Positions 20,262 to 20,298 are shown, counted from the first letter of the stretch. The stretch is DNA of 64,000 bases from Escherichia coli (GCF_003018235.1 NZ_CP027437.1); one strand, 5' to 3'. Notes: generated by a model from the sequence alone, not told the origin. Numbers and translations are program-made.

Positions 20262-20298
20262 CCCTCACCCTAACCCTCTCCCTAAGGGAGAGGGAACC
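20262..20298. repeat. Dispersed intergenic hairpin repeat (ccctcaccctaaccctctccctaagggagagggaacc); second copy at 45185-45222
   Basis: Near-identical 37-38 bp element seen twice in the window, both in intergenic positions (pepA-holC and nrdD-nrdG). Confidence 0.6.

Follow-up and report, generated by a model that had tools for sequence, protein, structure and literature searches.

BoxC (PIT/TM_ECO type A) repeats in the strain-variable pepA-holC and nrdD-nrdG spacers of Escherichia coli

Introduction

What is the GC-rich hairpin repeat that stands at two distant intergenic sites of the 64-kb stretch of Escherichia coli DNA analyzed here (hereafter, the window), and does it serve the genes that it follows? 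A first-pass annotation of this DNA had described it as an identical repeat lying at both sites just downstream of a + strand gene, with a 10-bp perfect stem and no T-run behind it, and had taken it for a likely member of a small dispersed family, possibly boxC, with a transcript-stabilizing or protein-binding role rather than that of a terminator. BoxC is a short dispersed repeat of E. coli known since the 1990s (Bergler, 1992; also covered by Bachellier, 1999). According to Holder et al. (2015; PMC4666352), their TM_ECO motif equals BoxC and the PIT element (Hoyne and Maher, 2000, 2002); they tabulated 23 TM_ECO copies in K-12 MG1655 and found the motif in more than 260 genomes. As published (PMC4666352), the motif consists of CCCTC[T/G]CCC(C/T), a loop of 2-5 nt, GGG(G)AGAGGG, a second loop that is TTA in type A and CCG in type B, and a third block, GGGTGAGGG. 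Because this third block stands beside the hairpin, the element was re-described as a potential intrastrand triplex.

Results

Two copies of one unit lie behind pepA and nrdD

The 22-mer CCCTCACCCTAACCCTCTCCCT is present exactly twice on the + strand of the window, at 20262-20283 and at 45185-45206, as the first-pass annotation had it. No third match was found in the window even with 3 mismatches, and the chance expectation was a mean of 0.00 over 100 shuffles, also with 3 mismatches; with two occurrences found and none expected, a chance recurrence was rejected. At both sites the 22-mer is followed by GGGAGAGGG (20286-20294 at site 1, 45210-45218 at site 2), and the two cores differ by one 1-nt indel in the loop, TAA at site 1 and TCAA at site 2. 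ACCG[A/T]TC is found downstream of both, which brings the common unit to about 43-44 nt. The flanking genes, pepA-holC and nrdD-nrdG, were confirmed by an ORF listing and by annotated E. coli genomes, and both copies do lie shortly behind a + strand gene, 12 nt past the pepA stop codon and 7 nt past that of nrdD. nrdG is the downstream gene of the same operon as nrdD. The features of the two loci are as follows.

18738..20249, + strand: pepA, stop codon 12 nt upstream of copy 1
20250..20349, + strand: whole pepA-holC spacer allele with copy 1, alternative to the REP/BIME allele
20262..20294, - strand: BoxC/TM_ECO core copy 1, type A, perfect; + strand blocks CCCTCACCC 20262-20270, TAA 20271-20273, CCCTCTCCC 20274-20282, loop TAA 20283-20285, GGGAGAGGG 20286-20294
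20295..20310, + strand: conserved flank of copy 1, AACCGATCGAGCGCAA, with which the shared unit reaches about 49 nt
20334..20342, + strand: lone AGGGTGAGG block, complementary to 20262-20270
20383..20826, + strand: holC, overlapping the valS start
43039..45177, + strand: nrdD, stop codon 7 nt upstream of copy 2
45178..45361, + strand: whole nrdD-nrdG spacer allele with copy 2, alternative to the BIME allele of K-12 and O157
45185..45218, - strand: BoxC/TM_ECO core copy 2, type A, perfect; + strand blocks CCCTCACCC 45185-45193, TAA 45194-45196, CCCTCTCCC 45197-45205, loop TCAA 45206-45209, GGGAGAGGG 45210-45218
45219..45226, + strand: conserved flank of copy 2, TACCGTTC
45253..45295, + strand: apparent remnant of the left arm of an ERIC-like dispersed repeat, 35/43 (81%) identical to the Salmonella nrdD-nrdG spacer
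45362..45826, + strand: nrdG

Read on the minus strand, copy 1 is CCCTCTCCC-TTA-GGGAGAGGG-TTA-GGGTGAGGG and copy 2 is CCCTCTCCC-TTGA-GGGAGAGGG-TTA-GGGTGAGGG. The upstream CCCTCACCC, which the first-pass annotation had treated as flank, is actually the third defining block of the repeat. Folded as RNA, site 1 forms a 9-bp stem with a 3-nt loop (-17.9 kcal/mol, z -3.1) and site 2 a 10-bp stem with a 4-nt loop, a flanking A-U pair included (-20.3 kcal/mol, z -4.1). The perfect 10-bp stem proposed earlier for both sites therefore holds at site 2 but not at site 1, where the 10-nt complementarity is parted by a single base, leaving a 1-nt loop, and the stem is consequently of 9 bp. The corresponding DNA hairpins reach about -10 to -11 kcal/mol, and ViennaRNA predicts a hairpin and no more at either site. 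The stem begins 19-25 nt past the stop codon, and the REP stem in the K-12 alleles begins at about the same place. The minus strand of the sites follows the triad rules G.G:C, A.A:T and T.A:T; its segment GGGAGAGGGTTAGGGTGAGGG also matches the G-quadruplex pattern (four G3 tracts, loops of 1-7 nt). According to published NMR data, the triplex is favored over the quadruplex once the C-rich block is attached (PMC4666352).

Both copies are assigned to BoxC type A

The two sites are almost certainly perfect type A copies of BoxC, that is, of the PIT element and TM_ECO intrastrand-triplex motif. Both display the three blocks in the published order, in agreement with Table 1 of Holder et al. (2015). 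We made a profile HMM from the 23 published K-12 MG1655 copies and searched the 64-kb window with nhmmer. Copy 1 (E 8.8e-10, 35.1 bits) and copy 2 (E 4.3e-9, 32.9 bits) were both recovered on the minus strand, and the profile gave no further significant match in the window. The tentative boxC assignment of the first-pass annotation is thus borne out by the published motif, of which both sites show the type A form, and by the 23-copy profile, with E values of about 1e-9. Identity amounts to 97% between copy 1 and K-12 copy No. 2, and to 94% between copy 2 and each of K-12 copies 2 and 17. When the two window copies were compared with the perfect type A copies of the K-12 hrpB-mrcB and lldD-trmL spacers, ACCGWTC was found in all four; site 1 and the hrpB-mrcB copy (K-12 copy 2) have GAGC[G/A]CAA in common as well, so that about 49 nt are shared in all, and site 2 has about 44 nt in common with the other type A copies. 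Since 44-49 nt, flanks included, are shared at unrelated loci, the unit was copied and did not arise by convergent or parallel evolution. The shared unit of site 1 (about 49 nt) is slightly shorter than the 51-59 bp (about 56 bp) published for BoxC.

Table S8 of Holder et al. (2015; PMC4666352) lists the exact motif of site 1 in E. coli HS at 4,520,554-587, which on checking is the pepA-holC spacer, and the motif of site 2 in SMS-3-5 at 4,815,701-735, which is the nrdD-nrdG spacer; the exact motifs of these two loci are given there for strains HS, SE11 and SMS-3-5. The family and both loci are already in the literature, and nothing essential differs from published BoxC: the window copies have the same three blocks and the TTA second loop of type A, and they are likewise intergenic, multi-copy and strain-variable. 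Neither locus is occupied in K-12 MG1655, and the window copies stand singly, without an intact inverted A+B pair, site 1 retaining a lone third block at 20334-20342, a probable remnant. In an annotation, both sites should be labeled BoxC (PIT/TM_ECO type A), and not terminators, sRNAs or new elements.

Copy number in E. coli and occurrence in other lineages

The 116-nt segment spanning site 1 served as query for a census of the family in 5426 complete E. coli genomes. A median of 12 BoxC places per genome was obtained, with a range of 1-23. In CFSAN018748, the closest genome found (801/801 identities at nrdD-nrdG), this query gave 10 places. The repeat is thus far from being limited to two copies genome-wide, and the window copies agree with the published picture of an intergenic, dispersed element in roughly 10-30 copies per E. 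coli genome.

The breadth of the motif was examined by scanning for GGGWGAGGGNNNGGGWGAGGG with one genome per species, which gave at least 120 loci, none of them enterobacterial among the matches listed. CCCTC[T/G]CCC lay no more than 12 nt upstream in 128 of 137 GGGWGAGGGNNNGGGWGAGGG instances among these matches, which came from Archangium, Afipia, a Hyphomicrobiales MAG, Candidatus Contendobacter, a 'Deltaproteobacteria' MAG, a Pseudomonadota MAG, an unclassified MAG and a Bacteroidaceae MAG. A match in Nocardiopsis was a simple tandem repeat and was rejected as a family member. The three 9-nt blocks are invariant in sequence in at least seven unrelated lineages (Myxococcota, Alpha-, Gamma- and 'Delta'-proteobacteria, the unclassified MAG and Bacteroidaceae among them), and the flanks differ by lineage; the hairpin arms, which the search pattern itself fixes, are essentially invariant, so that covariation within them would be uninformative. 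This breadth agrees with the more than 260 genomes given by Holder et al. By column consensus, the repeated units are only about 40-110 nt long in three genomes with 30, 67 and 13 copies, and an IS or a MITE with a long conserved body was rejected. An all-against-all BLAST of 791 ORFs from 120 loci among the matches listed revealed no recurrent neighbor protein family, the largest cross-locus cluster having 3 members; this argues, weakly, against an associated transposase.

Two observations were made on individual metagenomic assemblies. The unclassified MAG GL140_5 (loci L010-L037) has at least 30 three-block copies in two subfamilies with conserved units of about 110 nt, and their frequent position at contig ends suggests that the repeat breaks the assembly. 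In the Candidatus Contendobacter MAG, a YrlA (Y RNA-like) match above threshold (74.7 bits; locus L042, 352-489, + strand) is separated from a BoxC-like motif by a few hundred bases, and the two probably have nothing to do with each other.

The two spacers hold different repeats in different strains

Both window copies are absent from K-12 and stand in strain-variable spacers. At pepA-holC, the full 116-nt BoxC segment was found in 1404 of the 5426 complete genomes (26%). In 1323 genomes the identity of this version is 99% or higher, and in more than 1300 its BoxC core is conserved at 100%. One, two or three REP/BIME units, and no BoxC, stand there in K-12 and in the other strains examined. 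All that the alleles have in common is, on the left, TAA..TTGCGT and, on the right, ATGC..TATTTAAATCC. In three other enterobacterial lineages, with HolC 86-91% identical, REP-type palindromes occupy the same position. The lone AGGGTGAGG block closes a nested fold of the whole window spacer (-44.4 kcal/mol, z about -5.7) and gives a weak third-block match to the K-12 profile (20334-20342, E 8.5). It is probably what is left of a second, inverted BoxC copy, a reading drawn from comparable single-block remnants at K-12 BoxC loci in other strains.

The window type of the nrdD-nrdG spacer is rarer, being found in 408 of 5426 genomes (7.5%), and K-12 and O157 carry BIMEs in place of BoxC. The 140 nt past BoxC are single-copy and exist as two sub-alleles 4-5% apart. 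On a contig of the Enterobacter group, BoxC follows nrdD in the same position and orientation (39/44 identical), and then comes an inverted type B copy. The Salmonella spacer contains a REP and an ERIC-like dispersed repeat, the latter segment having a median of 9 places per genome in E. coli. Next to the window BoxC, 45253-45295 looks like an ERIC remnant; since all other parts of this spacer occur only once in E. coli, the remnant seems to be an eroded one.

Both spacers are slots for different families of palindromic repeats in different lineages: REP, ERIC-like or BoxC elements fill them in the Salmonella and Enterobacter-group relatives. Every allele examined at the two spacers contains a palindromic element and folds strongly as RNA, with -59.1 and -56.5 kcal/mol for the K-12 alleles and -44.4 and -53.5 kcal/mol for those of the window. 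Target-site duplications could not be defined at the window loci, where the whole spacer differs between alleles and no clean insertion is seen. The loci that carry BoxC in K-12 are variable in other strains as well. One allele has a 64-nt deletion exactly between two GGGAGAGGG blocks, which leaves a plain hairpin, some keep a single GGGGTGAGGGG block, and some are hairpin-free or nearly empty. The 'empty' alleles look like deletion derivatives.

Comparison with REP elements, terminators and RNA families

REP cores (GCCGGATGCGGCG-type, 2 mismatches) gave 12 matches in the window and none at either site. Membership in REP, RIP or BIME was rejected, REPs being found in these spacers only in the alternative alleles. 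REP/BIME elements, like BoxC, are short GC-rich palindromic intergenic repeats standing just past stop codons, they form inverted pairs of two subtypes and are polymorphic for presence or absence, and both of the present spacers are filled by them in the other E. coli genomes sampled. The sequences are unrelated: BoxC lacks the GTAG head and the GCCGGATGCGGCG core, and has the added third block. We know of no association of BoxC with a RAYT-type enzyme, IHF, gyrase or Pol I. In the window, REPs are more frequent than BoxC, and REP-core matches form inverted, BIME-like pairs at 35289-35318, 49008-49037 and 55207-55245.

Similar elements outside E. coli are the repeats CCCTCTCCCXX(X)GGGAGAGGG of Enterobacter sp. 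638, which have the same arms as BoxC and are located at gene 3' ends (Taghavi et al., 2010; PMC2869309). These 100 copies were described as hairpins only, with termination presumed and the third block left undiscussed (PMC2869309). In the window, the scans for intrinsic terminators found no match in 20000-20600 or 44950-45550, and nothing promoter-like was matched at either site. The bases that follow the hairpins are AACCGATCG at site 1 and TACCGTTCC at site 2, without any T-run. An intrinsic terminator and a promoter were both rejected, and the first-pass annotation was right on the T-run and on not calling a terminator.

Neither site gave an Rfam match at gathering level, which excludes membership in any Rfam family, whalefall-1 (RF01762) included. 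The latter scored below threshold at 20261-20296 (-), 20272-20344 (+) and 45184-45219 (-), with 19.7, 16.3 and 14.2 bits against the required 37, and its threshold was not reached in 19 loci of two other lineages either. whalefall-1, known from whale-fall metagenomes only, has a CUCUCC/GGAGAG hairpin and then AGGGUGAGGA; it resembles the BoxC blocks with a longer spacer, and might be a relative of the BoxC family. Four other places of the window match Rfam families at gathering threshold, all on the minus strand: Ysr276, antisense within pepA (19296-19490), a Magnesium-II riboswitch (38168-38283), naRNA4 (CssrE; 55187-55263), which overlaps the REP-core matches at 55207-55245, and a tRNA (13200-13281).

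Discussion

BoxC as a probable REP-like passenger

We infer that BoxC is probably a passenger repeat comparable to REP, with its RNA hairpin as a by-product; a little less firmly, we hold that it has no dedicated host function. Such a non-coding element would lodge in spacers just past genes, often as inverted A+B pairs, and would decay via deletion between its own 9-nt blocks. It would be inert in double-stranded DNA. When single-stranded, the G-rich strand (minus in the window) is predicted to fold back to a 9-10 bp hairpin, along whose GGGAGAGGG arm the GGGTGAGGG block could then align as a purine-motif triplex. This fold-back may favor slippage and deletion, which would help to explain the remnants and the diversity of alleles. 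The transcripts of pepA and nrdD carry the C-rich strand, and therefore only a plain G:C hairpin without a U-run is expected in them; a pyrimidine-motif triplex in RNA would need protonated cytosines and contains a mismatch. In these mRNAs the hairpin would be non-terminating and would at most slow 3'-exonucleases, as REP/BIME would in other strains.

The passenger reading is founded on the absence of both copies from K-12 and their presence in just 26% and 7.5% of 5426 genomes, on the BIMEs that fill the same slots in the genomes sampled and the REP, ERIC-like and BoxC elements that do so in other genera, and on the nearly empty alleles, the 64-nt deletion and the single-block remnants at K-12 BoxC loci. 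Several points speak against it. A strongly folding palindrome is present in every allele seen at the two spacers, so the slot could be selected for a hairpin, and a neutral passenger would hardly be expected to retain blocks invariant in at least seven lineages. To our knowledge, no copying enzyme exists for BoxC, and none was found beside the copies sampled among the matches listed. The deletion-prone picture is at odds with a pepA-holC core conserved at 100% in more than 1300 genomes, which is not visibly unstable on that timescale. Concerning the triplex itself, type A forms an intrastrand purine-motif triplex in vitro, with CD and NMR signatures, a Tm of 82 °C and a G-quadruplex excluded, and the motif blocks polymerases in vitro; in vivo DMS footprinting detected no stable triplex, which also speaks against this account (all in PMC4666352).

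A possible instability element or a possible selected RNA element

Two other readings deserve weight, and both were ranked below the passenger for the same reasons: the number of BIME units varies at the same spacer without BoxC, hundreds of genomes carry the BoxC alleles as stable haplotypes, and hairpin-free alleles are common at other BoxC loci. The first, which we consider possible at perhaps one chance in a few, is the hypothesis of Holder et al. that a transient triplex formed in replication or repair stalls forks and actively makes local rearrangements, possibly as adaptive variation. Both window loci are indeed polymorphic among strains, and the decay products elsewhere are bounded by the blocks of BoxC itself. 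In K-12 orientation, the G-rich strand of both sites is presumably the lagging-strand template; the GC skew of the window, weakly negative, is too weak to tell the replication strands apart. According to Holder et al. (2015; PMC4666352), the surroundings of TM_ECO sites vary more than control spacers do, and the in vitro triplex and a polymerase stop are reported as well. On the other side, in vivo footprinting was negative according to the same source, and the controls were not matched for a feature of these spacers, namely that they look like general repeat nests, with REP or ERIC-like elements in other genera and BIME alleles of 1-3 units at pepA-holC. The stability of the haplotypes also weighs against the hypothesis (pepA-holC at least 99% identical in 1323 genomes, nrdD-nrdG with two old sub-alleles). 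The association of the triplex motif with 'genomic instability' in the literature may arise in part from spacers that gather palindromic repeats of all kinds. Because BIME, REP, ERIC-like and BoxC elements share the same spacers, controls for instability should be matched for repeat-collecting spacers.

The second, somewhat less probable still, is a selected RNA element that replaces REP functionally, the hairpin shielding the upstream pepA or nrdD message from 3'-5' exonucleases or setting the NrdD:NrdG ratio. REP stabilizes mRNA, the BoxC stem starts about where the REP stem does in the K-12 alleles (19-25 nt past the stop codon), all alleles fold strongly as RNA, and a palindromic element is found in these slots in several genera. 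The 100 hairpins of Enterobacter sp. 638, often at gene 3' ends, point the same way (PMC2869309). The K-12 copies speak against such a role, being without bias in strand orientation or operon arrangement and lying upstream of ORFs more often than downstream (PMC4666352). Earlier functional tests of these elements, quoted in that paper, gave no promoter activity and no in vivo effect, and the putative function suggested by the first-pass annotation finds no support in them. At other BoxC loci, alleles that are nearly empty are common, and a plain stabilizer requires neither the third block nor invariance across phyla.

Less likely readings: copying enzyme, binding protein or terminator

The invariance of the blocks across phyla is the sole part of this topic that could still give something new. 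Invariant blocks, lineage-specific flanks, inverted A+B doublets and 44-49 nt shared at unrelated E. coli loci would fit either a mobile unit of the REPIN kind or a motif targeted by some conserved host factor, and we regard this as an outside chance. If true, copying would be done by a widely distributed single-strand DNA enzyme that recognizes the hairpin and the 3' block, and the same enzyme, or the same preference for hairpins behind stop codons, would explain the alternation of BoxC, REP/BIME and ERIC.

A binding site for a putative nucleoid protein or transposase-like enzyme that recognizes the hairpin and its 3' block appears improbable. The blocks are conserved in sequence and not merely in pairing across unrelated lineages, and the inverted A+B pairs recall REP doublets, but no recurrent protein family stands beside the copies at 120 loci among the matches listed. 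The accessible BoxC/TM_ECO literature mentions no binding protein (PMC4666352).

A Rho-independent terminator of pepA and nrdD can practically be dismissed: termination was presumed for the similar repeats of Enterobacter sp. 638 (PMC2869309) and a stable G:C hairpin lies just past each stop codon, but no U-run follows either hairpin, the terminator scan is empty, and the published tests quoted in PMC4666352 showed no terminator activity. For nrdD, the gene downstream, nrdG, also lies within the same operon.

Additional observations

The pepA-holC spacer has a bearing on gene calling. An in-frame ATG at 20344 (GGTGAGGAATG), provided by the BoxC allele of the spacer (window 20344-20382), lengthens the holC ORF from 147 to 160 aa (13 codons). 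The protein collection contains a cluster of 160-aa HolC proteins with 653 members, and gene callers therefore probably place the start of holC wrongly where the BoxC allele is present. HolC calls of 185 aa in other enterobacteria likewise reach upstream into a REP-containing spacer.

The 3' end of pepA, which adjoins this variable spacer, is unusually divergent. Over its last 550 nt (window 19700-20249), identity is only 94.9% with a K-12-like strain; with strain C4, whose pepA-holC spacer is the same BoxC spacer as in the window, it is 98.5%. For holC, identity with the two strains is 98.4-98.9%. The segment 19900-20700 has at least 99% identity in just 1 of the 5426 genomes.

Base composition varies along the window, with a G+C content of about 43% in 1-8000 and 24001-32000 and of about 52-53% in most of the remainder; these low-G+C segments may have been acquired horizontally.

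In the lldD-trmL spacer of E. coli STEC1585 (locus L139, about 258-295), GCTGTCTCTTGATCAGATCTCCTGATCAAGAGACAGG stands in place of the segment between the two BoxC copies. It is a 15-bp perfect inverted repeat, and its left arm and center correspond to what we take to be the 19-bp inside end of Tn5/IS50. This 37-mer was found in 1839 of the 5426 E. coli genomes, usually once, with 330 places on plasmids and a maximum of 31 places in one genome.
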